A stretch of DNA of 64,000 bases from Candidatus Moduliflexus flocculans. GTDB lineage: Bacteria; Moduliflexota; Moduliflexia; Moduliflexales; Moduliflexaceae. The notes under the pieces were generated by a model. The model made no database searches, was not told the DNA's origin, and saw nothing but the letters and a program-made list of their open reading frames with translations. This document shows positions 49,280 through 63,925 of the stretch, piece after piece (within the stretch, counting starts at the first letter, position 1; every line of letters starts with the position of its first letter). Position numbers and translations under genes: made by a program. Location: positions 349,804 through 413,803 of the forward strand of contig DF820457.1 in assembly GCA_000739515.1 (NCBI GenBank). The letters run 5' to 3'.

Positions 49280-51529
49280 TCACATCCATATCGTAATCGG
49301 GTTCATCTCGGATTCACTGATTGGCTTCGGAATCCATCCTAATTTCACCGGCACGTCATATAAGCGCCCCGGCGCAAATCGCGCTCGAATGTGGCGAAGA
49401 CCTGGCACAATCACCTTAACCACGCTCATTCCGATGTCCGGTCGCGTGACATCATTCACAAGAAATTCTGCCCCTAAATTGCGCGTAATCTCAAAACAGC
49501 GTTCAAGATCATCCAGAATATCCTCGCGATACCATTCGGAGTAAGATGAACGGGTTTTCGCGGGAACGGATCGATCCGGAGCAAGATACGGCAGATGTTC
49601 AAGTCGTCCAGTGCGATTCCAATCCTTCATAAATTGCTCGCGTTCCGACCGCGCTCGTTCCGCCATGCGCCCGCTTTCCATCAGATATAAGGATTGATTC
49701 ATTTCCGTCAGCGCCCTGCTGAGCGCAATTCTGACATCAAAATGCGTGCCATACCCAAAGGTCAGCATTTCGTCTTCGCGTCCCACGGTGCGAGAGATCG
49801 CTGCGTATGTCGGAATCGTTGAATCTGTCGTCAAATCCAGCACCCAGAGTTCCCTGCTGAGTGCGGCGTAATATTCACGCAAGGCGTCGAAATACGAATC
49901 GTGAAAACTGTCTAAATCCACCGCCGGGCGCTGTAAGCGGTTATACCACCAGATTGACACGGAATCCCGCTCGACGACCTCGAAAAATGCCTGCAAAATC
50001 GCCTCTTCAAGCACATTTCCAGCCGCAAAGCCATTCGATTCGACGCTATAAAACAAATCGCCGCCATCAGCAGGATCAGTGTAGCGCAAATAACAATACG
50101 CCGTCGGCACATATTTGACAGTCTGCGCTGTGCACGACCAGACTGGCGTCCAATCAATCGGCGTTTCTGGATCAAGGCGGATCGGGACATGTTCAAGCGA
50201 GAGATGCGACCGATTCCATTCCTCGCGGCAGCGATATTGCTCCTCGCTGAACAACATGCAGCGCTCAATCGGGATAAAACGCTCATCAGCCTGGCTATAT
50301 GGCATGCGGATGCGAAATTCATGGCCTTGATAGATCGCCGAATACCGCTCGACCGCTTCGCTGAAGGCGCTGGCGCGCGATTGCAGGTCGCTTCGCCCTT
50401 TGCCGGTGCTGTTGTTGCGCAACGCCCGCTGCAATTCGGCATAATTCCTGTTTACCAGAGATAGGCGATGAATCCCGGCATACATGGTGATTAATCCGTT
50501 CGCATCCGTGAACATCTGCCGCAATTCCGTGACAATGCCAGTAATCGGGCTGATCAAATGTCCGTAGCGCTTGAAGGTTTCTGTAGGAGAACAAATGCGA
50601 TGTCCGCCATCTTCGGTAAAAAATTTTTTTCTGGATTGCAATTGCAGAGGACGAGGCTCTTCATCGTGTGGCATTCCGCAGATAGGGCATTGCGGACGCT
50701 TTGAGAGGATATGCTTATCAGTCTGCAAGGTCGCGGCATCAAGTGTGATGATCGTTCCTTTCAGCGGAGAATGCGCGATATCCGCCAGACACAGCGCGAC
50801 CTGCGTTGCCGCTAACGCGCAGCCGGTTTGAAGCGTGCTCGGCAGCATCGCCCGCGACACCGGGAACGGCGCGGAACGTTCAATTTGATATTGCAGGGAA
50901 CTTTCGACTTTGCGATGTTCCGCCAACCGGTGAGCCAGACAATACCAGCAGCCCGTTTCGCCCGGAATAAAGAGCGGGCCAATCCATAACACCGCGCCGA
51001 CTGGCTTGACAAGCAGCCAGGGAGACCCCGCCTGCAACCGTTCCTGATTAAATTCGCGCAGCCCGTCTTGCAAGTAATCGTCAACGAGCGCAACAGCAAG
51101 CTCGCCAGCGTGATCGGGCTGAATTCCTAACGCGCTGAGTTGAGCCGCGAACGGCTCAGCCTGAACTTCCCCAAACGTATGCAATGCGACCCGTGCAGGC
51201 GTCTTTTGCCAGTTCGCCTGGTTGGGATCAATGCCATGCAGATGCCAAAATGCCGCCGTCGCATCCGCAGGCGCGTCTGCCGCATCCACAAGGTACCCCT
51301 GCGTTTCCAGACGCTCTAACGCATAACGGATGCTCGCTTCAGAGACAAACGCCTTCAGTTTCTCCTCAATGTCGTTGACAGCGTGCGTTCCGTCTAAAAA
51401 CGGGGCAATGGCTCGATACAAAAGTCCGCGCAAGGCATAATGCCTTTTTTCGCTCAACAAATAGACGACATCTTCGTCAGGAGCAACTTCGACATGGAAA
51501 TGCGGTTTAAATTTGGGCTTTTCAAGCAT
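49280..51529 (-). CDS. Fused RRE/E1-like + YcaO cyclodehydratase (TOMM C-D fusion)
   Basis: N-terminal RRE-like segment; IGPLFIPGETGCWYCL, KRPQCPICG, GKGRSDLQSRASAFSEAVERY, SNGFAAGN, EVVERD, RALTEMNQ, VKVIVPGLRH; ends MNPITIWM. Confidence 0.92.
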   Translation of the reverse strand: MLEKPKFKPHFHVEVAPDEDVVYLLSEKRHYALRGLLYRAIAPFLDGTHAVNDIEEKLKAFVSEASIRYALERLETQGYLVDAADAPADATAAFWHLHGIDPNQANWQKTPARVALHTFGEVQAEPFAAQLSALGIQPDHAGELAVALVDDYLQDGLREFNQERLQAGSPWLLVKPVGAVLWIGPLFIPGETGCWYCLAHRLAEHRKVESSLQYQIERSAPFPVSRAMLPSTLQTGCALAATQVALCLADIAHSPLKGTIITLDAATLQTDKHILSKRPQCPICGMPHDEEPRPLQLQSRKKFFTEDGGHRICSPTETFKRYGHLISPITGIVTELRQMFTDANGLITMYAGIHRLSLVNRNYAELQRALRNNSTGKGRSDLQSRASAFSEAVERYSAIYQGHEFRIRMPYSQADERFIPIERCMLFSEEQYRCREEWNRSHLSLEHVPIRLDPETPIDWTPVWSCTAQTVKYVPTAYCYLRYTDPADGGDLFYSVESNGFAAGNVLEEAILQAFFEVVERDSVSIWWYNRLQRPAVDLDSFHDSYFDALREYYAALSRELWVLDLTTDSTIPTYAAISRTVGREDEMLTFGYGTHFDVRIALSRALTEMNQSLYLMESGRMAERARSEREQFMKDWNRTGRLEHLPYLAPDRSVPAKTRSSYSEWYREDILDDLERCFEITRNLGAEFLVNDVTRPDIGMSVVKVIVPGLRHIRARFAPGRLYDVPVKLGWIPKPISESEMNPITIWM

Positions 51530-51799: not shown

Positions 51800-53170
51800 T
51801 TACGGGTTGTTGTCTTCCTCTGGCGCGTCGAGAAATTCCTGCACGCTCTGCATGATGTCGCCGGAATGATAAAACTCAAGAATTTTGCGATAAATGGACT
51901 CTTGAAATTCCAGACTTCCGGCATGGGTATGGAGTTTCTGCTGGTCGAACCAGCGTTTTTGAGGCAAGCGCACTAATTTGCGGCATAATGAATCCACGAC
52001 GGGATCGTTGAACGAGTATCGCAAAATCTGCAAGCGTTCTTTATCCGATTTAATCATGCCTCTGGTTTGCATTTCATGCCAGATTCCCGTATTTCGCAAT
52101 CCGACAAGATAGAGCGAAATGACGCTCTGCGAACATTGATATTGGCCGATAAATTTGACATTTTCGACAAAATCCTCTAACGTCATGTCGTAATGCGAAA
52201 ATAAGATCATATAGGCCAAAATTTTAACATCAGGAGCATATCGCTCGCGCAGCCGCATCATGGTCGTGAGCGCCTGCGCGTTTTTTTCCGGCGTCGTCCG
52301 GCGTCCGAGCAAATTCAGCAGATGCTGAGTATTCCCTTCAACACCCATTTCAATGGCGCACGGACGAATAATCTCGCTGCGAAAGAGATATTCCATTACT
52401 GCGGCATTCCGCAGGAAATCTTCTGGCCGCCCGACGATGGAGATGTGTACCGGCAGCTTTCGCGTTTCCAGTTCGCTGAATAATTCCTGGAGCAATTGCC
52501 CGTTCGCCGCAGCATTGGCATTTCCAAGATGAAAGGTGTCATATCCCTCGCGATACCAGGCTTCAATTTCGTCTGCGGCCTTCTTCGCGCTTTTAAAGCG
52601 CATGGTCGCCACGTCCTGGCAATAGTAGCAGCGCCCGTAGCAGCCGCGCGTTAATTCGATAAACACGATGCCCTGAACCACGACCAGCGTATTCGGGCGA
52701 GGTAATTCATCCAAATCCACGAATTCTGTCGGCGGGCGGACGATAATGCCGCGCTGAGAATCCCGGTACGCAATGCCGTCAATCGCATCAAATAATTCGG
52801 GCTGCTTGAAGGAGCGCAGCAGATTCAGCAGGCGTTTTTCCCCTTCTCGCAAAATCACGTAATCAACGTTGGGGTTCTCCCGCAGCATCATTTCCGGATC
52901 GGAGGTCGCCGCCCAGCCGCCCCAGATAATCGTTTTCTGCGAAAGGCGCTGCGTCAGTTCTTGCGCGGTCGCATACACATAATTCAGCACCGAAAACCCA
53001 AACACATCCGCTTGATCAATATAGTGATCAAGCTCGGAACTTGAAATGATTATGCTGTTGATGCCGTGCTGTTTCAAATACGGATCGAGAACCGCCAATC
53101 CGCTGTTGTTTGGCATCCAACTGTCAATATTCACGAAAATAATATCCGCTTTTTCTTGTGGCGCACACAT
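51800..53170 (-). CDS. Cobalamin-dependent radical SAM enzyme (class B methyltransferase-like)
   Basis: B12-binding-like N-terminus (GLAVL..YLKQHG, WGGWAAT, REGE); ELTRGCYGRCYYC. Confidence 0.82.
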   Translation of the reverse strand: MCAPQEKADIIFVNIDSWMPNNSGLAVLDPYLKQHGINSIIISSSELDHYIDQADVFGFSVLNYVYATAQELTQRLSQKTIIWGGWAATSDPEMMLRENPNVDYVILREGEKRLLNLLRSFKQPELFDAIDGIAYRDSQRGIIVRPPTEFVDLDELPRPNTLVVVQGIVFIELTRGCYGRCYYCQDVATMRFKSAKKAADEIEAWYREGYDTFHLGNANAAANGQLLQELFSELETRKLPVHISIVGRPEDFLRNAAVMEYLFRSEIIRPCAIEMGVEGNTQHLLNLLGRRTTPEKNAQALTTMMRLRERYAPDVKILAYMILFSHYDMTLEDFVENVKFIGQYQCSQSVISLYLVGLRNTGIWHEMQTRGMIKSDKERLQILRYSFNDPVVDSLCRKLVRLPQKRWFDQQKLHTHAGSLEFQESIYRKILEFYHSGDIMQSVQEFLDAPEEDNNP

Positions 53171-53212: not shown

Positions 53213-54112
53213 TTACGCCAGGCCATGTTCGTTCAGTAGTTCCGGCAAATACGTCACTGTCAGCGGGAATTGCTCCTGAAGGTTGTTCAGCACCCGATTT
53301 TCAATCCACTGCCAATGTTCTGACGGCGTGTATCCACTGAAACGAGATCGGCAGATGTCAATCAGCGCGGGGCGAATATGCTGCTCCCGCACCCAGGCGG
53401 TCAGTTGGTCAATGCGCCGCTCGACTTCTGCTACCTCAAATTTGGGAGTTTCTGGAATCGGCCCCATTTGATACAGGTAATAATAACCGTCATCGCGCTC
53501 TTCTGCTCGCACAAAACCTCCGCAAATGCGAATCCGGTGATACGGATGGTCGTGAAATGCGCGATATTCGCGTTCTGTCACTTGCACTTCAAAGGTTTCG
53601 CCGGTTTGATAATCGCAGAAAAAGTAATCTAAATCAATGTCCAGAATCACAGTTTGAGAGGCCGAAATCGTTCGGTCTGGCGTGATATGATAGAGATTGG
53701 CGACTTTCCGGTCGGGATTCAGCAGCCCGGCCTGAAAGAGGTTTTCCGTGACAAAAAGGCGGCGGCCTTCGCCTTGCGCCGAAAACATATTTAACATCCG
53801 ATCTTTCCGCAAGCGATGATGTTCCCGCCGCATCCAGTAAATATCGCTGAACAGCCCTTGATAGACGGCGGGGAGAATAAAATCGCCGATGCCAAGATTG
53901 GTTCGCGTAAACAGCAGCGTGTCGCGCAAGTCCGTCCCGATCTCTTTCAGCGAACTTTTCAGCAGCGGAAGGTTCAGGTCGTCATGATCATCCACATGGA
54001 GCAGCGTGTTGCGGGTTGCTGGGATTAGCTGGTTCATAACCGCGTACCGCCAGATGAAAAAGGCTTCGTAATGCTCTTCCATAATAAAAGTCGGTATCAT
54101 ACTGTCCCCCAT
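53213..54112 (-). CDS. UPF0489-family peptide arginase (OspR-like, Arg to Orn)
   Basis: IPTFIMEEHYEAFFIW, LLHVDDHDD, ILDIDLDYFFC, CRSRFSGYTP; embedded in the RiPP operon. Confidence 0.72.
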   Translation of the reverse strand: MGDSMIPTFIMEEHYEAFFIWRYAVMNQLIPATRNTLLHVDDHDDLNLPLLKSSLKEIGTDLRDTLLFTRTNLGIGDFILPAVYQGLFSDIYWMRREHHRLRKDRMLNMFSAQGEGRRLFVTENLFQAGLLNPDRKVANLYHITPDRTISASQTVILDIDLDYFFCDYQTGETFEVQVTEREYRAFHDHPYHRIRICGGFVRAEERDDGYYYLYQMGPIPETPKFEVAEVERRIDQLTAWVREQHIRPALIDICRSRFSGYTPSEHWQWIENRVLNNLQEQFPLTVTYLPELLNEHGLA

Positions 54113-54130: not shown

Positions 54131-55510
54131 TTAGTTCAGGCTCTCTTCCGGCGAATCGAGAAACCGCATAATGCGAGCGTGAATGTTTTCAGCCGCAGAA
54201 AATTCTACGATTTTCTCGTAAATCTGACTTTGGATGCGCTTATAACCCCAATAGATCGCGTGTTTCCCGGCGACTTGCCGAACGCTAAGCAAGGCGTGAA
54301 AATAGGAAGAAAATTTTTGGAAGAGCCGGTTAACGGTTTCATCCGTGAACGCATATTCCTGAATTTGCAAACCTTTATTGGAATTGGTAAGAAATCCTCT
54401 GGCGCGCATATCTTTCCAGACAGGCGTCATTGCCACGCCGTACAGGTTCATCGCCATCACATCTTTTGTGCAGCCATATTCTCCGATAAAACGAATGTTG
54501 GCGATTAATTCTTCCATAGTCATATCGTAGTGCGAAAACAAGATCATGTTCGCCAGAATTCGAGTGGTGGGGGAATATTTCTGCTGCAATTCTCTCAGGG
54601 CGGTGATCGCCTGATGATTGGTTGCAGGACTTCCTCTTCGCCCTAATAAATCGAGGAGGCGCTGCGTGTTGGCTTCAATACCGACTTCAATCGTGATGAG
54701 ACGCTGAGTCGGGTTTTTGAAAATGCGTTCAAGCGTGTCATAATTTCGCAGCACATCTTCCGGGCGACCAACTAAGCAGAATTCTATCGGCAAGCCGCGC
54801 GATTCCAACTCATCCATCAATGACCGTAGCAACGGACCATTCGCTAAAGAATTGGCGTTGCCAAGATAGAATTTCTTGAAGCCTTTCTGATGCCACGCCT
54901 GAATTTCATCAACGACTTTTATGGCATTTTTAAAGCGCATGTGGGAATTTTCCTGACAATAGCCGCATCTGCCGTAGCATCCCCGCGCCACCTCGACAAA
55001 CACGAGGTTATCCTGAACAGCCATCTCATTCGGCAGCGGCAGGTTATTCATATCCACAAACCCCTCTGGCGGGCGAACGCAAATTGTGTTCTGACCGTCT
55101 CGATACGCGATGCCATCAAGCGCGTCAAAGAGTTCTGGCTGTTTCAGCGAGCGCAGCAGGGTGACGAGTCGGCGCTCTCCTTCTTGCAGCACCACGTAAT
55201 CTACGCCCGGATTTTCTGTCAGAATATACTCTGGAAGCGCCGTTGCCGTCCAGCCGCCCCAAATGACTGTTTTATCCTGCAAGTGTTTTGTCAGGGTTTG
55301 CGCAATGCGATAGGTGTGATCCATGACGGAAATTCCGAATACATCCGCCTGATCAAGGTATTGGTTGATTTGAGAACTGTTGACGATCTGGCTTCTGAAG
55401 CCTGCCTGTTTCAACACCGGATCAAGAATCGCCAACGCGTTATTCATGGGAAACCAGTCGTCAATATGAATGAGAATAATATCCAATTTTCGATCAGTAT
55501 CGCGCATCAT
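54131..55510 (-). CDS. Cobalamin-dependent radical SAM enzyme, paralog of 51800-53170
   Basis: WGGWTATALP, QEGE, EVARGCYGRCGYC; start ATG 55510 after TAAGGTG. Confidence 0.82.
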   Translation of the reverse strand: MMRDTDRKLDIILIHIDDWFPMNNALAILDPVLKQAGFRSQIVNSSQINQYLDQADVFGISVMDHTYRIAQTLTKHLQDKTVIWGGWTATALPEYILTENPGVDYVVLQEGERRLVTLLRSLKQPELFDALDGIAYRDGQNTICVRPPEGFVDMNNLPLPNEMAVQDNLVFVEVARGCYGRCGYCQENSHMRFKNAIKVVDEIQAWHQKGFKKFYLGNANSLANGPLLRSLMDELESRGLPIEFCLVGRPEDVLRNYDTLERIFKNPTQRLITIEVGIEANTQRLLDLLGRRGSPATNHQAITALRELQQKYSPTTRILANMILFSHYDMTMEELIANIRFIGEYGCTKDVMAMNLYGVAMTPVWKDMRARGFLTNSNKGLQIQEYAFTDETVNRLFQKFSSYFHALLSVRQVAGKHAIYWGYKRIQSQIYEKIVEFSAAENIHARIMRFLDSPEESLN

Positions 55511-55512
55511 AA

Positions 55513-57852
55513 TCACCTTATATACGGCGGAAGCGCAAAACGCGCGATATATTCCGCATGGGTTTTGCACTGGTAGCGTGGATGGCAGGCAGCTCGCGCA
55601 GTGGTTTTGGGAAATGCATTCGCGGCGACTCCAAGCGCTGAGGTGGTCAACGCGGATAAAATCATCAACGATTTATCCTCATAATACGAAATGGCATGAT
55701 ACGTCTTGCCGACTGCCGCCACGCGCTCTCCATTCAATGCTTTGAGGTGAAGCAATGCGTGAAATGAGGATGGATCGTCTTCAAGCAGATCGCTTGAATA
55801 AAATGGAATTGGCGCGTCAGGCGTCGGATGCCTGTCAAGCTCATCTGCTATCCAGCACTGCGCCTGCGCGATTCTGTCGCTGTTAGCGCCAAGCGCGGCG
55901 AGCGTCAAAATCGCCAGCGCGGTGGAAAGCATTTGATCAAACTCGCCGAAAGCCCCGTCGTTTTGCTGACTGGCGCAGATTTCCTGCATGAGTTTGTTTC
56001 GCAGTTCATCCGCCTGATCGTCATGGCAGAGAGCCAGAGCGAGCGCCCAATCCGCCAAATACGGATTGGCGAAATACAATCCGCTCCGCTGCTCGAATCC
56101 ATCTGCAAGATACGTCAGCGATGTGCTGGGCGGCAAGCCGTGCCGCATCCTGTGCCAGCGCACGAGGCAAGTCGTGGCATAATCGGCCTGACACCAATGG
56201 CGGACATTCGGAGTGAACAGCATGAAATCAGGGCGTTGCTCCTGCGACCAGAGTTGCGGGTAATAGCCGTTCTGACCATCATGAAACCTCTCAAGCGCTT
56301 CAACCGCCTTCATGTCGTTCAGCCCGAGCAAAATCAGGGAAGAATCGGTGGCTGTGATGACATGGCCGGTATGAAACGCCCATAAATCTCCCTGCTTGCG
56401 TGTGGTAAGCAACTCTTCCAGAGACGAAAGCACGGCGGCAAGCTCGCCGTTTTGCTCGACAATCTGCCGCAATGCATATAAGAGAAAACCTAACGGCACA
56501 AGGTCGCCGTATGGAAACGGCTTTTGCGGCGCAGGCGGAATGCACATCATTGGAATCGGCTGTTGACAAGCTTTTTGCGCCAATGTCAACAGGCGCTGGA
56601 AATATTGTTTTGGCGGCGATGACAATTCAGTGCTGCGGCTCGTATCCTGAAGAAAGCGCCTGACATGCTGCGCAGTTTCCTGGCCGGATTTCACCGCAGC
56701 GTCCATGCCATAGGGAAACTCGCGATAGAGATAATCACCGGCAAGATAAATACCTGGCGCGGCGCACAAGACATCCGCGTTCCATGTCGCGTAACTTTCG
56801 GGCGTGATGATTGTTCCGCCGCATTCCCAGCGATGCGTTTCCGCAAAAAGCTGTTCAGCCCCGGCGATATTCAGCCCGACGCGCTCCATAGCGCATTTCG
56901 TCCGCGTGATCAGCTCATCATCCGGCAATTGCCGGGTTTCCTGCGACGCCCGATTGCAATAATAGACGAGAAGGACCGTTATCCGGCTTCCTGGAAACGT
57001 CATTTTGTAGATTGTGGTCATCGGTAGTTCTGGCGTCACAACGTAGGAAAATTCCTGATCGCAGATAATATCCTTATATCCGAGCGCGACGACTGTGAAT
57101 CGGCCATAACGAATGGAATGGAGAAACTGTCGGCATGGCTCGCGCATGTCTGAAAGCAGGGCGAGCGCAACCGGCGCGGGAGTCGCCACAATCACGGCGC
57201 GAGCGTATGTCTCATGGCGTGTTCCCTGCTGCGTGAATAAGACGCACATGCCGCGTTCTGTGCTCGTAATGGACTCAACCGCTGCCTCGTATTCGACGTG
57301 CGCCTGAATTCTCTGGCAATAAGCGTCAATCAGCCCATAATTTCCATCGGGATAATGTTGCGGATGATAACGCAAAAATGCGTGAGAGTGAAATGCGGGG
57401 AGATATTCTTCGATGTCGCCGGGATGAATGACCTGAAAGAACGCATTCAGCAGGTCGCGATGCTGCTGAGGCAGCCGGGCGGGGCTGAGTTTCCCATTTC
57501 CTGCGGCAAGCATGTTCGCGAACGCCGCTGATTCCGGCGGAACGATTGCGCTCAGGCATTCGGCGACCGATTCGCCGCGATAAAGCGCTCCGTCCCAAAA
57601 TACGCCAATAGGCGCAAGTTCTTCGAATGCTAACGGCGGCGAAAAATCGCGTGGAGCGCATTCGAGATCGTAGGACAACACTGCCCCGACATCATAACAA
57701 TGCGCTCCGAATTTCTGCGTGCGGATTCTCCCGCCGGGAATGGCCTCTTGTTCTAAGATCAGCGTGTTGCGATCTCGCAAATGATACGCAGCCGATAAGC
57801 CTGCCAACCCAGCGCCAATGATGATTGTCTCGAATGTTATTCCACTAACCAT
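55513..57852 (-). CDS. FAD-dependent amine-oxidase-type oxidoreductase fused to a squalene-cyclase/prenyltransferase-like alpha-alpha domain
   Basis: IIGAGLAGLSAA, GGRIRT, LAGDY..GMDAAVKSG in the first ~400 aa; helical C-terminal part with QW-like motif SQQNDGAFG. Confidence 0.7.
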   Translation of the reverse strand: MVSGITFETIIIGAGLAGLSAAYHLRDRNTLILEQEAIPGGRIRTQKFGAHCYDVGAVLSYDLECAPRDFSPPLAFEELAPIGVFWDGALYRGESVAECLSAIVPPESAAFANMLAAGNGKLSPARLPQQHRDLLNAFFQVIHPGDIEEYLPAFHSHAFLRYHPQHYPDGNYGLIDAYCQRIQAHVEYEAAVESITSTERGMCVLFTQQGTRHETYARAVIVATPAPVALALLSDMREPCRQFLHSIRYGRFTVVALGYKDIICDQEFSYVVTPELPMTTIYKMTFPGSRITVLLVYYCNRASQETRQLPDDELITRTKCAMERVGLNIAGAEQLFAETHRWECGGTIITPESYATWNADVLCAAPGIYLAGDYLYREFPYGMDAAVKSGQETAQHVRRFLQDTSRSTELSSPPKQYFQRLLTLAQKACQQPIPMMCIPPAPQKPFPYGDLVPLGFLLYALRQIVEQNGELAAVLSSLEELLTTRKQGDLWAFHTGHVITATDSSLILLGLNDMKAVEALERFHDGQNGYYPQLWSQEQRPDFMLFTPNVRHWCQADYATTCLVRWHRMRHGLPPSTSLTYLADGFEQRSGLYFANPYLADWALALALCHDDQADELRNKLMQEICASQQNDGAFGEFDQMLSTALAILTLAALGANSDRIAQAQCWIADELDRHPTPDAPIPFYSSDLLEDDPSSFHALLHLKALNGERVAAVGKTYHAISYYEDKSLMILSALTTSALGVAANAFPKTTARAACHPRYQCKTHAEYIARFALPPYIR

Positions 57853-58943
57853 GCGCCTCCCGCATTTTTCGAAAAGATGGCATTCGCGTTTAACCCCGGA
57901 TGGCTTAACGCTAAATACGCTTTGGCTTCTTTCGCCTGTCCGGACGTAATACTCAGCTTGATGTGATGAATTTTACGCAAAAGGAATTGATAGGCAATAC
58001 CTTCGGCGGGGCGCGGCCAATCTTTCGGAAAGTGCGTCATGCCTTGAAAATCCAGGATTCCCTGATATTTTGACGGAAGGCAGAGATGCATCGCCGCAGT
58101 TGCGTCGAGGAGCGGTATCCACTGTTTGGGATCATTTTCCAGCCAATTCATATAACATTCCACGCCGATTTTTTCCGCCGGTCCGTCCGGCATCAAATTG
58201 ATGTTCATCGCAAACGATTCCAGCCCTTGCGGCAACTGCCGCAAAATATCCGCGATGTTTTCCGGGTTTCCTTGCCAGCCAACCGCGCGAAGCCAGACAG
58301 GAATTTCCTCTGCCGTCAGCGGATACACGCACACTCGCAAGCCCGGGTTGGGTCTGGAAAGCATAATTCCAATTTGAAAGATGCGCGCCTCGCCGGGAAG
58401 TTCCTTGATCAGTGCATTTAGCGCGTCTTCATGATATATTGGATTTTCTAAGGCGCTTAATGCCTCGCAAATCAGGTGGGCATCCTGTTCTTTTTGGAGC
58501 GTTTTGGCATTCGGGCCGAAAAAAATGCACGGGCGGCTCAAAATCTCATCAGCCTGCGACGGGTCATCTATTGCGGCGGTGTCGAATTCTAACCAGAGAT
58601 TTCGAATGTGCGTGGAAAATGCATGATGCGGGTTTGCCCACAACGTTGCAAATCTGCGCAGATTCTTCCAGGCAGGCCATTGCGCGCATAAGGCATCTAA
58701 GGTTGAGGGCATCTCCCCGGCGAGGATATTCCGCCCCTGAGATTGACGTTTGATTTCAAAAAGAATATCCATTTTTGCGCTCGCTTCGCCGAGGCGGCAT
58801 TCAAAGCCCCAGAACGTCGCTAACTCAAACGGCAAACGCTCTGCCGCGAGCGCTAACAACGCATACCCTTCCGCGTCAACCAGGCTGTCAGGGAGCGAAG
58901 CTTTCGCCAATTCCAGCACAGAGAGCAGATTGGTCGTGATCAC
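57837..58943 (-). CDS. Putative ABBA-fold aromatic (Trp) prenyltransferase
   Basis: FECRLG, WLEFD, QIGIMLSR, KIGVECY, HHIKL..AKAYL: repeating beta-strand pattern with Arg/Lys/Tyr residues; GTG start overlaps the epimerase stop; fold assignment is inference. Confidence 0.55.
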   Translation of the reverse strand: MITTNLLSVLELAKASLPDSLVDAEGYALLALAAERLPFELATFWGFECRLGEASAKMDILFEIKRQSQGRNILAGEMPSTLDALCAQWPAWKNLRRFATLWANPHHAFSTHIRNLWLEFDTAAIDDPSQADEILSRPCIFFGPNAKTLQKEQDAHLICEALSALENPIYHEDALNALIKELPGEARIFQIGIMLSRPNPGLRVCVYPLTAEEIPVWLRAVGWQGNPENIADILRQLPQGLESFAMNINLMPDGPAEKIGVECYMNWLENDPKQWIPLLDATAAMHLCLPSKYQGILDFQGMTHFPKDWPRPAEGIAYQFLLRKIHHIKLSITSGQAKEAKAYLALSHPGLNANAIFSKNAGGAWLVE

Positions 58944-60436
58944 TGATACACCTCATCCAGCAGCCCATGATCGAATAAACTTTTTACCATCGCGACAACA
59001 GTGATCAAATTGAATTGGTTTGCGACCATTTCCTCTGTGAGCTCTTTATACGTGAATGCCTGTCTGGAAATTGCGTCGCCTAAGAACCGATGCGGCGCTT
59101 TTCCGCGAAAATGATGCACCTGATTCGGCGAGACTAAATCAAATCCCTCGTCTGTCGGGCGATAACGTAAATCGTCGCGGAAGCGCATCGGCATGTCGGC
59201 GCGTGGGGATTCCGGCATATTTCGGTCAATCAAGGATTCGATGGCCTTGCGGAAATCGGCGGCGTCAGTGAAGGAGGCGTTATCAAACACGCGATAACCG
59301 TAGGGCCATTTCGAACTGGAATAGCAGGGGCTGATCAATTGAATCGTCCGCGTGACGAAACTGACCATAAAACCGGACATGCACTCAATTGTCCCTTGCG
59401 GCACGACGCCGTTAAGATATTCTCCGTCCTCCTTGCCGCGCAAGCCGTCTTCCTCTTTCAACACGCGTCCGCTGGACACTTTCGGGCGCACATGCTCTTT
59501 CATCTGCATCAGCAAGTCCACGTCCAGCAGTTCTTCTGGGGAATATAATTCATGAATTTTGAACAGCGCCGCCTTTGAGAGAACGCTGATTCGTAAGGAG
59601 GCGGGAAACTTTCTTTCTTTGTAAAATGCGATCAATTGCCGCAGCCATGGCGCGTCCGTGCCGACTGCGGTGGAGGTAAATGGCGCAGCCCCGCAGATGT
59701 CGGTATAATCCCGCAGAAATTCAAAATAATGCGGATTATCATGCGGCTCTGTGCCGCAGTAGAGCATGGTTCTGCCGGTCTGCTCCGCGCCAAAAATATC
59801 TACGCACGCCTCAACAATAGAACGAAAAAACTCCTTGTGAATCGCATAATCGAGGTTATCGGTCAACTTCCGCGCCGCGAACGCGCAAAACCAACACCCC
59901 ACGCTGCATCCGTCGCTCAATTCAAATGATAGCACCGGATGGCTAATGTGATAGCCATAAATGCCTAATTCGCTGCGCGCGGAATGAACGCGGCGCTTGC
60001 GCCAGGCATCGAACGCGGGATTCGTTTCCACCGGCAGAACGCGATTCCGCAGCATGGCGTAGAGTTCCTCTTTCAGGGTGAGAAACCGCGCCCATAAATG
60101 GAATAAGGGATAGGCTGCGATGTCTTCAAGAATATTGGCAGGTAGTTCCTGCGTTTTCTTTGTGCGCACCGCTCTCATGAATTGCTGAACGCTCTCCGGC
60201 GATTTCCAGAGAATCGCGAGTTCATCGGGAGCGAAAGAAATGCCGATGCGCCGCAAGCGCTCACGCGCCTCCGGTCGGAACGTTCCTGCGTCAACCTCTC
60301 GGCAAAACTCGGGATCGCCTTCTGTCCATTCAAAGAACCGCTTGATCTGGGCTATCGTGGCGAGTTCTTGCTCGGAAAACGTCCCGAATAATTCTACGAC
60401 GTTGTGGCATGAATTCGAGGGTTGAGGATTCAGCAT
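58940..60436 (-). CDS. Radical SAM RiPP amino-acid epimerase (PoyD/OspD family)
   Basis: HPVLSFELSDGCSVGCWFCAF, TEPHDNPHY, GTIECMSGF, SPCYSSSKWPYGYR. Confidence 0.88.
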   Translation of the reverse strand: MLNPQPSNSCHNVVELFGTFSEQELATIAQIKRFFEWTEGDPEFCREVDAGTFRPEARERLRRIGISFAPDELAILWKSPESVQQFMRAVRTKKTQELPANILEDIAAYPLFHLWARFLTLKEELYAMLRNRVLPVETNPAFDAWRKRRVHSARSELGIYGYHISHPVLSFELSDGCSVGCWFCAFAARKLTDNLDYAIHKEFFRSIVEACVDIFGAEQTGRTMLYCGTEPHDNPHYFEFLRDYTDICGAAPFTSTAVGTDAPWLRQLIAFYKERKFPASLRISVLSKAALFKIHELYSPEELLDVDLLMQMKEHVRPKVSSGRVLKEEDGLRGKEDGEYLNGVVPQGTIECMSGFMVSFVTRTIQLISPCYSSSKWPYGYRVFDNASFTDAADFRKAIESLIDRNMPESPRADMPMRFRDDLRYRPTDEGFDLVSPNQVHHFRGKAPHRFLGDAISRQAFTYKELTEEMVANQFNLITVVAMVKSLFDHGLLDEVYQ

Positions 60437-61995
60437 TCACTCGTCGAACTGACGCCTGAGTGAGCATTGACCTCATTCAAGAATCCGTTATCAAATAAAT
60501 TTTTCAGCGCCACCACAACAATCATCGGGTTGCAGCCATGCTGTTTCGTCATAATGTCATACAACTCGTCATAGCTGTGCGTGCCTTCAGCGAGCAAGTT
60601 TCCTAACGGCTTGTGCAATGCGGCGTTGCGAAAATGGTGAATCTGATTCGGCGAGGCGAGTTCAAATCCGGATTCTGTCGGACGATAGATGAAATCATCG
60701 CGAAATTGCATCAACATGTCTTTGGGCGGATTTTCAGGCATATTCCGATCAATCAGCGCTTGCATCACGCGATGAAAATCTTCTGCGTCAGCAAAGGTGG
60801 CCTCATCGAAGACGCGATAGCCATAAGGCCATTTTTGCGAGGTATAACACGGGCTGACGATCTGGATTGTTCGCCTGACCATGTTGATTAAAAAGCCAGA
60901 GACACAGGCAATTGAGCCTTGAGGCACGATCTCGTCAAGATAATGCCCCTGTTCGCGTTCGCGCAATCCGGCCTCTTCTTTCAAAATGCGTCCGCCCGAC
61001 ACTTTTTGGCGCGGGCCGTGCTTAATTTGCATCAAAAGTTCGACGTCCCGAAGCTCTTCTGGCGAATAAAGATCGTGAATTTGATGCAGCATGGCTTTGG
61101 ACAGGACGCTCAACCTCGGCCAGGGAGAATTCGATTGCCGATAGAACGCGATCAGTTCGCGCATCCAGACCGGATCGGTTGGCACTGCTGTTGATGTGCA
61201 TACCGGAAATCCGGTAATTTCGGTATAATCTTTAACAAAGTCCAGATAATGCGGATTATCGTGCGGCTCCGTGCCATAATAGAGCAATGCCAGACTCGTT
61301 TCATATCTGCCGAACAGATCGACGCAGGCATACGTCACTTGCCGGAAAAAGTCGCGATGTTCTGTATAATCGAAATTTTGCGTCAATTTGTGTGTGGCAA
61401 ACGCGCAGAACCAACAGCCAACGCTGCATCCATCCCCCAATTCGAAGGCTAAAATCGGATGATCGAGCATATAACTGAAATAGCCTAATTCGCTTTTGGT
61501 CGCGGCAATTCGACGGAGACGCCAGGCGTCGAATTTGGGATTGGCCGGGATGCGAATCACTTTTTCCGCAATATTGCCCATATAGTTCCTGAATAAGCGA
61601 TTTTTGGCCGAAAGATACCGCCCCCATAAAACGAATAATGGATACTCCGCAATTTTCTGCATTATCTCTTCTGGTAAGGCTTCTTCATGACGTGCCTGAC
61701 AATTCAGGACAAAACGCTGCGCGGCTTCGGGATATTTCCAGAGGATGGCGACTTCATCGAGATTGAAGGTTATGCCGATGCGCTGCAAACGCTCCACTGT
61801 GGCGGGAGACATATTGCCGGAAGTCAATTGTTTTTCGAAGGCCGGATCGCCCTGCGCCCATTCAAACAGCCGTTTTAATTGGACGATCAAGGACATTTCG
61901 TCTGCTGAAAATTGGCGCAACAGTCTTGCATGAAAATCTTCGCAATTTTCAGTACTTTCAGGGATATTTGATGCTGCCTGTTGATGATTGCTCAT
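60430..61995 (-). CDS. Radical SAM RiPP amino-acid epimerase (PoyD/OspD family), second copy
   Basis: HPILAFELGDGCSVGCWFCAF, TEPHDNPHY, GSIACVSGF, SPCYTSQKWPYGYR. Confidence 0.88.
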   Translation of the reverse strand: MSNHQQAASNIPESTENCEDFHARLLRQFSADEMSLIVQLKRLFEWAQGDPAFEKQLTSGNMSPATVERLQRIGITFNLDEVAILWKYPEAAQRFVLNCQARHEEALPEEIMQKIAEYPLFVLWGRYLSAKNRLFRNYMGNIAEKVIRIPANPKFDAWRLRRIAATKSELGYFSYMLDHPILAFELGDGCSVGCWFCAFATHKLTQNFDYTEHRDFFRQVTYACVDLFGRYETSLALLYYGTEPHDNPHYLDFVKDYTEITGFPVCTSTAVPTDPVWMRELIAFYRQSNSPWPRLSVLSKAMLHQIHDLYSPEELRDVELLMQIKHGPRQKVSGGRILKEEAGLREREQGHYLDEIVPQGSIACVSGFLINMVRRTIQIVSPCYTSQKWPYGYRVFDEATFADAEDFHRVMQALIDRNMPENPPKDMLMQFRDDFIYRPTESGFELASPNQIHHFRNAALHKPLGNLLAEGTHSYDELYDIMTKQHGCNPMIVVVALKNLFDNGFLNEVNAHSGVSSTSEC

Positions 61996-62186: not shown

Positions 62187-62503
62187 TTACCAGGCTCTAC
62201 CCAGGACAGCGCCGCTGACGACGACGGAGCCACCGACGGCGCCGACAGCACCAGCAATAGCCATTGTCACAGTGACGACTCCACCAGCCACCTGCTCTAA
62301 TTCCTCGTCACTCAATTCATTCGTCGGCCTGATTTCGTCGGCCAACGCTTGAATATCGCGTTATCGAATTCAAGGCCAAGTTCGTTTTTACTATACGCGA
62401 TCCAGCCATCAACATTTTCGATGCCGATCGCTTTGACTCGTTCTCTGATTTTTTCATCTTCCGCACAGAGTTGCCCAAATTTTTTGAAATTTTCTACGCT
62501 CAT
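62187..62503 (-). pseudogene. Nif11-like RiPP precursor D with a 1-bp deletion; restored core VVTVTMAIAGAVGAVGGSVVVSGAVLGRAW
   Basis: GATAACGC at ~62361 versus GATAAACGC in precursor C; 317 nt, and adding one A restores a 75-aa leader plus 30-aa core ending in TAA at 62187-62189. Confidence 0.85.
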
Positions 62504-62561: not shown

Positions 62562-62927
62562 TTACCAGCCTCTACCGACGGCAACGCCAACGAGGCTGCC
62601 GGCGGCGGCACCAGCGACGCCGCCGCCGACGATGCCGACGACGCCTGCGGCGACGATGGCGCCGCCGACGGCGCCAACAATAGCCATTGTCGCAGTGACG
62701 ACTCCGCCCGCCACCTGCTCTAATTCCTCGTCACTCAATTCATCCGTCGGCCTGATTTCGTCGGCCAACGCTTGAATATCGCGTTTATCGAATTCCAGGC
62801 CAAGTTCGTTCTTACTATACGCGATCCAGCCATCAACATTTTCGATGCCGATCTCTTTGACTTTTTCTCTCACGTTAACATCTTCAGCGCAAATCTGCCC
62901 GAATTTTTTAAAATTTTCTACGCTCAT
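62562..62927 (-). CDS. Nif11-like RiPP precursor C; core VVTATMAIVGAVGGAIVAAGVVGIVGGGVAGAAAGSLVGVAVGRGW
   Basis: 75-aa leader MSVENFKKF...ELSDEELEQVAGG (double-Gly site) plus 46-aa core. Confidence 0.92.
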   Translation of the reverse strand: MSVENFKKFGQICAEDVNVREKVKEIGIENVDGWIAYSKNELGLEFDKRDIQALADEIRPTDELSDEELEQVAGGVVTATMAIVGAVGGAIVAAGVVGIVGGGVAGAAAGSLVGVAVGRGW

Positions 62928-63053: not shown

Positions 63054-63413
63054 TTACCATCTTCTGATAGCTCTCACAACTGCAATCGCGGCGCCAGCAA
63101 CAGCCCCCAAGGCTGCGGCTCCACCGGCAGCAGCTCCGGCAAGAGCAATCATCCCGGCAACAGCGGCGCCGGCGGTTGCCGTGATGAAGCCTCCGGCCAC
63201 CTGCTCCAATTGCTCTTCGCTCAATTCATTCTCTGGGCTGACTTCAGCGGCCAAGGTCTCGATGTCCTCTTTACTGAATTCCAGGCCGAGTTCATCCTTG
63301 CTATAGGCGATCCAACTGTCAATATTTTCGATGCCGATCTCTTTGACTTTTTCTCGGATTGCGGGATCTTCTGCACAAAGCTGTCCGAATTTTTTGAAAT
63401 TCTCAACGCTCAT
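63054..63413 (-). CDS. Nif11-like RiPP precursor B; core FITATAGAAVAGMIALAGAAAGGAAALGAVAGAAIAVVRAIRRW
   Basis: 75-aa leader ending ELSEEQLEQVAGG plus 44-aa core; AAAGGA RBS. Confidence 0.92.
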   Translation of the reverse strand: MSVENFKKFGQLCAEDPAIREKVKEIGIENIDSWIAYSKDELGLEFSKEDIETLAAEVSPENELSEEQLEQVAGGFITATAGAAVAGMIALAGAAAGGAAALGAVAGAAIAVVRAIRRW

Positions 63414-63586: not shown

Positions 63587-63925
63587 TTACCATCTCTTAA
63601 TGGCAGAACCAACCGACGCGACAACTCTGGCAGCGCCAGCGGCGATTGACACTCCACCAGCAATTACTCTGATGACGGAGGCAGCGGTTGACGTGACGAA
63701 TCCGCCAGCGACTTGTTCTAATTGTTCTTCGCTCAATTCATCGACCGGCCCAACTTCGTTGGCCAGAGTCTGCATGTCTTCTTTCGTGAATTCTAAGCCG
63801 AGTTCGTCCTTGCTATAGGCAATCCAGCCATCAATGTTTTCCACGCCGATTGCTTTGACTTTTTCTCGGATTGTGGGGTCTTCTGCGCAAAGCTGTCCGA
63901 ATTTTTTGAAATTCTCAACGCTCAT
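63587..63925 (-). CDS. Nif11-like RiPP precursor A; core FVTSTAASVIRVIAGGVSIAAGAARVVASVGSAIKRW
   Basis: 75-aa leader ending ELSEEQLEQVAGG plus 37-aa core; AAAGGAG RBS. Confidence 0.92.
   Translation of the reverse strand: MSVENFKKFGQLCAEDPTIREKVKAIGVENIDGWIAYSKDELGLEFTKEDMQTLANEVGPVDELSEEQLEQVAGGFVTSTAASVIRVIAGGVSIAAGAARVVASVGSAIKRW

Follow-up and report, generated by a model that had tools for sequence, protein, structure and literature searches.

A putative stand-alone ABBA-fold peptide prenyltransferase beside a class II terpene cyclase-like domain in a Nif11 gene cluster of Candidatus Moduliflexus flocculans

Peptide–terpene hybrids carrying cyclized isoprenoids were first reported in 2024 (Hubrich et al., Chem 2024, as summarized in the 2026 review PMC13290415). 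According to this review, the maturase NctPC consists of an ABBA-fold domain fused to an MstE-like cyclase, and it geranylgeranylates tryptophan (Trp) and then cyclizes the attached chain. The same review describes two enzymes resembling isoprenyl diphosphate synthases of the trans type (trans-IDS), namely, ChrPC, whose transferase attaches geranylgeranyl to Trp before cyclization, and PalQ, which prenylates a C-terminal Trp and prefers GW/GGW ends (PMC13290415). A further ABBA enzyme, the Moorena producens lanthipeptide prenyltransferase MppC, depends on a Nif11-type leader for the geranylation of Trp (PMC12715784). The present analysis concerns a 368-amino-acid (aa) protein, hereafter P, encoded in a 64,000-nucleotide (nt) stretch of the genome of Candidatus Moduliflexus flocculans (assembly GCA_000739515.1, contig DF820457.1, positions 349,804–413,803; referred to as the window) within a cluster for a peptide made by ribosomes and modified after translation (RiPP). 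A preliminary description of this DNA had proposed that P is an ABBA prenyltransferase that lipidates peptide precursors ending in Trp. The reading favored here, with a probability of about 0.7, is that P would act as a leader-guided ABBA prenyltransferase alkylating the terminal Trp, whereupon a class II terpene cyclase-like domain, C, fused to a flavin (FAD) enzyme and encoded by the next gene, would cyclize and probably oxidize the chain.

Judged by the description of NctPC in the review (PMC13290415), the two systems share an ABBA-barrel transferase with low similarity to the cyanobactin prenyltransferases, an MstE-like class II cyclase, the Trp of a ribosomal precursor as target, and a long chain that is then cyclized; in the case of P, the last two are proposed. 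A natural P–C fusion of the present family (P0174) has the same architecture as NctPC. P is likely to be homologous to the NctPC P domain. The window differs from NctPC in that P is a separate gene, that a flavin amine-oxidase-like domain takes the place of the transferase as the fusion partner of the cyclase, and that the proposed target Trp is the C-terminal residue. The cluster in the window also adds two PoyD epimerases, two B12 radical S-adenosylmethionine (SAM) enzymes, an arginase, and a YcaO protein, and the genome shows only a synthase of the farnesyl diphosphate (FPP) type, so the donor may be C15 and not C20. MppC resembles P, by its description, as a soluble ABBA-type enzyme from a cluster with Nif11-type leaders; it is leader dependent, prenylates the Trp indole, and prefers geranyl diphosphate (GPP) over C5 donors, but its substrate is a macrocyclized lanthipeptide core with an internal Trp (modified at indole C5), free L-Trp is not a substrate, and no cyclase acts afterward (PMC12715784). 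PalQ, ComQ, and the P domain of ChrPC resemble the proposed P in their chemistry: the ends preferred by PalQ are similar to the GGW and RGW ends of the present precursors, and a cyclase domain follows the ChrPC transferase. However, these proteins have an all-α isoprenoid-synthase fold with Asp-rich motifs whereas P is predicted to be a β-barrel, and the resemblance is thus a convergent one.

Systems of this kind have been known since 2024; the present locus would be a further, uncharacterized member with a naturally split architecture, in which the transferase is a gene of its own and the cyclase has a flavin enzyme as a new fusion partner, and with a polytheonamide-like host pathway. To our knowledge, very few maturases of cyclized-isoprenoid peptides have been characterized. 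The abstract of the 2024 study by Hubrich and colleagues reportedly states that, judging from genome data, proteusin, Nif11-like, and lasso peptides are also predicted to carry units of cyclic isoprenoid; in that case, the present kind of cluster was already anticipated there.

Predicted fold and conserved residues of P

The gene encoding P overlaps both of its neighbors. The GTG start codon of P and the TGA stop codon of the 498-aa radical SAM gene share a 4-nt GTGA overlap (cagTGAtc), and the 779-aa gene downstream starts with an ATG that gives a 16-nt overlap with the 3′ end of P; P is therefore coupled on both sides. This bears out the translational coupling to an epimerase gene described earlier, and the upstream product scored above the cut-off of the PoyD model (Table 1). 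The GTG start is credible since the N-terminus aligns with the homologues from their first residues. P is present as a single copy in the genome. All six motifs quoted in the preliminary description were located in P, i.e., FECRLG (residues 47–52), WLEFD (117–121), QIGIMLSR (190–197), KIGVECY (258–264), HHIKL (326–330), and AKAYL (340–344). Alignment of 57 family members, 25–83% identical to the window protein, revealed 19 invariant columns (G46, E48, L51, D59, W92, W117, E119, D121, F141, G192, M194, R197, R203, G260, E262, H327, K329, K341, and Y343), every one of which lies within or beside these motifs. The motifs are not chance strings.

A word-indexed search retrieved more than 130 homologues of P, all of them labeled “hypothetical.” When 1.84 billion cluster representatives (50% identity) were searched exhaustively with a profile, 4,403 of them matched at E ≤ 1e-3, of which 2,061 were found at E ≤ 1e-30. 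The “DUF4123 domain-containing” label carried by a Thiorhodovibrio UniRef entry of the family was not supported by a Pfam scan of the window protein.

The AlphaFold2 model of P, built from the 57-sequence alignment, had a mean predicted local distance difference test (pLDDT) score of 92.9 and a predicted template-modeling (pTM) score of 0.92. The model showed ten strands (residues 44–50, 58–65, 113–120, 139–144, 187–194, 202–209, 243–251, 254–264, 320–333, and 336–347) arranged as five hairpins with two helices before each, i.e., a fivefold α-α-β-β repeat. When the model was compared with the Protein Data Bank (PDB) using Foldseek, ranks 1–32 were occupied exclusively by ABBA prenyltransferases, and at rank 33, the probability fell to 0.03. 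The preliminary description had named this comparison as the check on the ABBA fold, and its outcome is a predicted ABBA barrel. The best match was the 5-DMATS structure 6zs0 (E value 1.3e-6, TM-score 0.55), followed by PriB, IptA, and TleC and then by DMATS1, FunA, LimF, CdpNPT, CloQ, PatF, PirF, PagF, and NotF. A PalQ-type (trans-IDS) identity of P, which the C-terminal Trp and the GW/GGW precursor ends had suggested, was rejected on the predicted β-barrel fold; the Foldseek matches contained no isoprenoid synthase.

The bacterial DMATS-type enzymes (SCO7467 5-DMATS, 6zs0; PriB, 5jxm; IptA, 7w8u; and TleC, 4yzl) were thus the closest structural matches of the model, with E values of 1e-6 to 1e-5 and TM-scores of 0.51–0.57. 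They resemble P in size (∼350 residues) and in having a ten-stranded prenyltransferase (PT) barrel; in contrast, they are only 12–13% identical to it, their substrates are free Trp or small indoles, and P lacks a match to PF11991. A search of the whole genome with PF11991 also gave no match, which is uninformative as the control genomes gave none either. The cyanobactin F-family (PagF, LimF, PirF, KgpF, and PatF) shares with P the ABBA barrel, the RiPP context, and peptide substrates, but its members were weaker structural matches (E values of 5e-4 to 0.3, TM-scores of 0.37–0.46), are shorter (∼290–300 aa), and are leader-independent enzymes that use macrocyclic substrates and short donors. 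Going by its model, P could be placed as a remote branch in the ABBA fold superfamily and in none of the named sequence families, i.e., Trp_DMAT (PF11991), PTase_Orf2, and the cyanobactin prenyltransferases.

The conserved residues were found on the predicted strands with an i/i+2 spacing (G46-E48-R50, W117-E119-D121, Q190-G192-M194, R203-C205, G260-E262-Y264, H327-K329, and K341-Y343), and because of this spacing, they would lie on one face of each strand. The residues on this face have the look of a conserved barrel lumen in which basic residues and tyrosines may bind a diphosphate. The residue roles cited in the preliminary description, with Arg, Lys, and Tyr for the diphosphate and a Glu close to the indole, were compared with P at the level of conservation and strand periodicity; the basic residues and tyrosines that are invariant or nearly so are R50, R197, R203, K292, K329, K341, H326/H327, Y264, and Y343.

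Members of the P family also occur in fused or duplicated form. Fusion to a 2-oxoglutarate (2OG)-Fe(II) oxygenase was observed in proteins of ∼590–600 aa (P0073, P0080, and L018:10001–11800) and fusion to a class I methyltransferase in a 604-aa protein (P0118), and tandem P–P duplications of ∼700 aa were found in P0341 and P0371. From these arrangements, prenyl-Trp might be oxidized or methylated in a coupled manner, and prenylation might take place twice.

The cyclase-like domain and its co-inheritance with P

An adjacent “cyclase-like domain” had also been mentioned in the preliminary description. AlphaFold2 modeling and Foldseek comparison showed that the C-terminal domain of the 779-aa neighbor, C, has a predicted class II terpene cyclase fold. 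C gave no Pfam match and its profile no match in the PDB, and SQHop_cyclase hints in Pfam were seen with a homologue. The model of C, built from 37 homologues, had a pLDDT of 93.8, and its top Foldseek matches (TM-scores of 0.60–0.68) were small squalene–hopene cyclases (8pak/8paj), MstE (6sbb–6sbg), drimenyl diphosphate synthases, Rv3377c, and Tpn2. MstE cyclizes the prenyl chain of a prenylated aromatic acid. The residues T90, D93, and S94 of C are invariant and form a T-x-T-D-S motif (TATDS in the window protein), the Asp of which (D93 of the domain, residue 503 of the 779-aa protein) probably corresponds to the acid motif of class II cyclases. The N-terminal flavin domain of the same protein showed sub-threshold matches to models of HpnE, protoporphyrinogen oxidase, and phytoene desaturase.

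C was also found in a second type of protein. More than 200 cyanobacterial “hypothetical” proteins of ∼600 aa, e.g., Riv7116_6270, consist of a highly conserved 235-aa N-terminal domain, X, followed by C. The loci encoding X–C in cyanobacteria and Thiorhodovibrio (L025:10001–11812, L026, L027, L014, and L016–L018) have as neighbors a P homologue and Trp-terminated Nif11 precursors, and a 2OG-Fe(II) oxygenase often precedes the P homologue beside X–C or forms one protein with it. Domain X had no Pfam match. A comparison of X with P by hhalign, made to see whether X is a diverged copy of P, gave a probability below 1% in both local and global mode and showed no relationship.

Related loci were collected by scanning species-representative genomes with a 16-sequence P alignment, which returned 14 loci, and by protein-identity look-up, which added more. 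The gene order of Nif11 precursor(s), PoyD epimerase, and P was kept in 11 genomes. It was seen in Anaerolineales, Synergistaceae, Desulfobulbus, Clostridia/Peptococcaceae, and other Bacillota, where a flavin protein was usually the next gene. P accompanies the flavin-fused form of C in the window and in three further loci (L019, L015, and L023), and it accompanies X–C in Rivularia PCC 7116, Nodularia NIES-3585, Nostocales HT-58-2, Oscillatoria CS-180, Thiorhodovibrio, and an uncultured cyanobacterium. Altogether, P and C co-occur in at least seven phyla, and P adjoins C in every locus examined that has C. The cyclase-like domain is the more strongly conserved of the two (40–50% identity where P is ∼30% identical), and it adjoins P even in distant clusters without an epimerase. 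Natural fusions were found both as P–C (P0174, 750 aa) and as X–C–P (P0343, 975 aa); a P0174-based search for further P–C fusions retrieved three proteins only. Since a terpene cyclase needs a prenylated substrate, the pairing and fusion of P with C constitute the strongest functional evidence for P as the prenyl-transferring partner.

Acceptor, competing explanations, and donor

All eight precursors of the genome end in Trp (as KRW, RRW, RGW, or RAW), four of them in the window and four just beyond its end, so the earlier statement that all precursors end in this residue holds for both sets. Among the Nif11 precursors encoded beside P homologues, 33 of 38 were Trp-terminal, drawn from at least 13 clusters of Chloroflexota, Synergistota, Desulfobacterota, Bacillota, Cyanobacteria, and the window's own lineage, with typical ends such as SRVW, SKAW, QGGW, MPGW, AKW, and GKW. 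The NHLP precursors beside the Thiorhodovibrio P homologue carry a Trp 2–6 residues from the end. The cores are otherwise unrelated, being hydrophobic stretches of Ala, Val, Gly, and Thr, and the arginase, YcaO, and B12 enzymes are present or absent from cluster to cluster. The terminal Trp is the one core feature that tracks P, across at least six phyla; the relation is a correlative one. The link between transferase, cyclase, and terminal Trp drawn in the preliminary description is thereby backed by conserved synteny, by two independent natural fusions, and by Trp-ended precursors in many unrelated genomes. In proteusins, the C-terminal Trp is brominated by SrpI (PMC10858898), which makes the terminal Trp a recurrent handle in this class of precursors. 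An SrpI-type bromination was rejected as the reason for the terminal Trp in the window, as the cluster has no flavin halogenase and its flavin domain is of the amine-oxidase/CrtI type.

P might also be an active ABBA prenyltransferase that modifies another acceptor, such as a Thr or Ser near the start of the core, the N-terminus of the core after leader removal, or an ornithine made by the arginase. The prenylation sites of cyanobactin-type ABBA enzymes include Ser, Thr, Tyr, His, and Arg as well as N-termini (PMC12715784; PMC13290415), and many of the cores begin with Thr-rich stretches, e.g., VVTTT, FITAT, and FVTST. However, the core of L015 has no N-terminal Thr but keeps its terminal Trp, most P-bearing clusters have no arginase, and the terminal Trp is the only core feature common to the Nif11 clusters of all phyla examined. 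In addition, the best structural matches of P are indole prenyltransferases, and NctPC, as described, acts on Trp (PMC13290415). Modification of an acceptor other than the terminal Trp was accordingly considered improbable.

Several observations weigh against the proposed function as a whole. P had no Pfam match even at E ≤ 10 and no NCBIfam match, and neither a single-sequence phmmer search nor the 57-sequence profile matched a PDB sequence. The structural matches themselves are distant, with TM-scores of 0.5–0.57, a root-mean-square deviation of ∼7 Å, and 10–15% identity. The predicted lumen contains the invariant acids E48, D59, E119, D121, and E262, more than are present in classical DMATS-type enzymes, and the P family differs from the latter also by a His-His-x-Lys. 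Two clusters (L022 and L005) have P without a recognizable cyclase; therefore, P can occur without cyclization. A terminal Trp is absent from five of the 38 Nif11 precursors encoded beside P, and no gene for a prenyl diphosphate synthase lies in the cluster. PatF, a catalytically inactive protein of ABBA fold, is among the structural matches of P (4bg2). Moreover, the cyanobacterial cyclase carries the extra domain X, which could be the NctPC-type “P” transferase, in which case P would have another role there.

The lack of sequence similarity to active families, the acidic lumen, PatF, and domain X would all suit a protein of ABBA fold that is no transferase, i.e., a dead scaffold or substrate presenter like PatF or a barrel with other chemistry, with prenyl transfer taking place elsewhere, for example in X. 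Against this, the 19 residues that remain invariant down to 25% identity are mostly charged and lumen facing, as would be expected of a conserved active site. The cluster of the window and its relatives (L001–L011, L015, L019, and L023) have neither X nor another transferase candidate, yet those with C keep the terpene cyclase; a P–C fusion without X exists, and X–C was never without P in the six loci examined. A non-transferase role for P is hence regarded as unlikely. Although 5-DMATS, PriB, and IptA, its best structural neighbors, prenylate free Trp, an action of P on a small molecule (free tryptophan or an indole or phenol metabolite), with its location in a peptide cluster being incidental, is highly improbable, as P is translationally coupled on both sides within a RiPP operon, the precursor–epimerase–P order is conserved, and P co-varies with Trp-terminated precursors.

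Prenylation of the terminal Trp by P would require a donor from outside the cluster. The genome (7.1 Mb, 94% complete) contained one match to a trans-prenyl diphosphate synthase (G000:C8:912130–912855; L021), the gene of which lies directly upstream of dxs, as in the ispA–dxs operon of E. coli. The protein reads ...HTYSLIHDDLPAMDNDD..., with a Tyr five residues before the first Asp-rich motif, a pattern that we take to be typical of IspA-type FPP synthases. Since this single synthase is of the IspA type, farnesyl is the most obviously available long donor; with a class II cyclase as the partner, the donor would be at least C10. A C15 donor is favored from the sequence of the synthase, and C20 has the precedent of NctPC.

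In the proposed reaction, P would take an allylic prenyl diphosphate into the lumen lined by R50, R197, R203, K329, K341, H327, Y264, and Y343 and ionize it for the alkylation of Trp, and for an invariant lumen acid (E48, E119, D121, or E262), a role in Mg2+ binding or as proton acceptor is possible. The C domain would then protonate and cyclize the prenyl chain, and the flavin oxidase-like domain fused to it presumably oxidizes the terpene or the indole. The expected product would be a hydrophobic peptide that is D/L-epimerized and C-methylated and bears a (poly)cyclic isoprenoid at the terminal Trp. A broader picture can be offered only tentatively and is less probable than not: the product could be a polytheonamide-like peptide of alternating D/L residues, C-methylated, whose Trp bears a flavin-oxidized, cyclized sesqui- or diterpene, and which inserts into membranes as a β-helix with a sterol-like anchor. 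The terpene unit would be the work of three distinct parts (the stand-alone ABBA transferase, the class II cyclase, and the flavin oxidase joined to the latter), and the P family (∼4,400 clusters, no Pfam model) could be a general “terminal-Trp lipidation” module of Nif11/proteusin peptides in at least seven phyla.

A strictly C-terminal Trp as the target would be attractive for the site-selective lipidation of peptides and proteins. As the P family is large (∼4,400 clusters at 50% identity) and wholly unannotated, one characterization would give a name to thousands of “hypothetical proteins” and would improve RiPP genome mining, for instance, through a rule that asks for P together with a Nif11 or NHLP precursor whose last residue is Trp. 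Given the similarity of the host pathway to the one that makes the channel-forming polytheonamides, the product could be a lipid-anchored pore former; interest would be higher still if an oxidized cyclic terpene anchor were indeed carried on a D/L β-helical peptide.

Further genes in and beyond the window

The features of the cluster are listed in Table 1. The YcaO gene is the last one of the cluster on its side, and housekeeping genes lie beyond it.

Table 1. Features of the P cluster, with positions in the window.
Feature	Position	Strand	Basis
P, putative peptide Trp prenyltransferase, predicted stand-alone ABBA fold (PT barrel), 368 aa	57837–58943	minus	open reading frame (ORF), GTG start
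779-aa protein (flavin domain + C)	55513–57852	minus	ORF directly downstream of P
Flavin amine-oxidase/HpnE- or CrtI-like domain, N-terminal in the 779-aa protein	56623–57852	minus	PF01593 (1.4e-25), PF13450
C, class II terpene cyclase-like, C-terminal ∼369 aa, single-domain α/α barrel	55513–56622	minus	AlphaFold2 and Foldseek
PoyD-type radical SAM peptide epimerase, second copy, 498 aa, coupled to P	58940–60436	minus	TIGR04517 rSAM_PoyD, 377 bits (cut-off 325)
PoyD-type radical SAM peptide epimerase, first copy	60430–61995	minus	TIGR04517, 384.5 bits
Nif11-type precursor, core end SAIKRW	63587–63925	minus	ORF
Nif11-type precursor, core end RAIRRW	63054–63413	minus	ORF
Nif11-type precursor, core end AVGRGW	62562–62927	minus	ORF
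Fourth precursor, core end VLGRAW, frame holds only leader end and core	62187–62345	minus	ORF
B12-binding radical SAM enzyme, probable C-methyltransferase	54131–55570	minus	PF02310, PF04055
Peptide arginase (Arg to Orn), FlmR/OhkR/OspR family	53213–54112	minus	PF12640; NF052474, 256 bits (below the 350-bit cut-off)
Second B12-binding radical SAM enzyme	51800–53170	minus	Pfam scan
YcaO cyclodehydratase with E1-like/leader-binding N-terminal region	49280–51529	minus	PF02624 (3e-94), TIGR03604, TIGR03882

The fourth precursor (62187–62503) has an intact core, and its leader appears out of frame upstream, which fits a leader that is frameshifted or contains a homopolymer sequencing error. For the B12 radical SAM gene at 54131–55570, the listed GTG start would create a 58-nt overlap with the end of the 779-aa gene; translation probably starts instead at an internal Met-Met (MMRDTDRKLD...) that lies a few codons farther downstream.

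The precursor array runs past the end of the window (L024:391–2766, equivalent to ∼63587–65962 in window numbering), where four more Nif11 precursors with (K/R)RW ends bring the total to eight. The array is followed (L024:2925–6650) by genes for a PF00144 β-lactamase/D-peptidase-like protein (469 aa), a protein resembling sulfotransferases (251 aa), and a protein with DUF7005 (384 aa). Other P/C clusters have homologues of them, i.e., the β-lactamase-like protein in L023, a sulfotransferase-like protein of ∼250 aa in L015, L019, and L023 and one of 635 aa in L022, and DUF7005 in L025 and L027. The three genes probably belong to the pathway; possible roles are that of a leader peptidase or D-residue peptidase for the PF00144 protein and terpene sulfation for the sulfotransferase-like protein.

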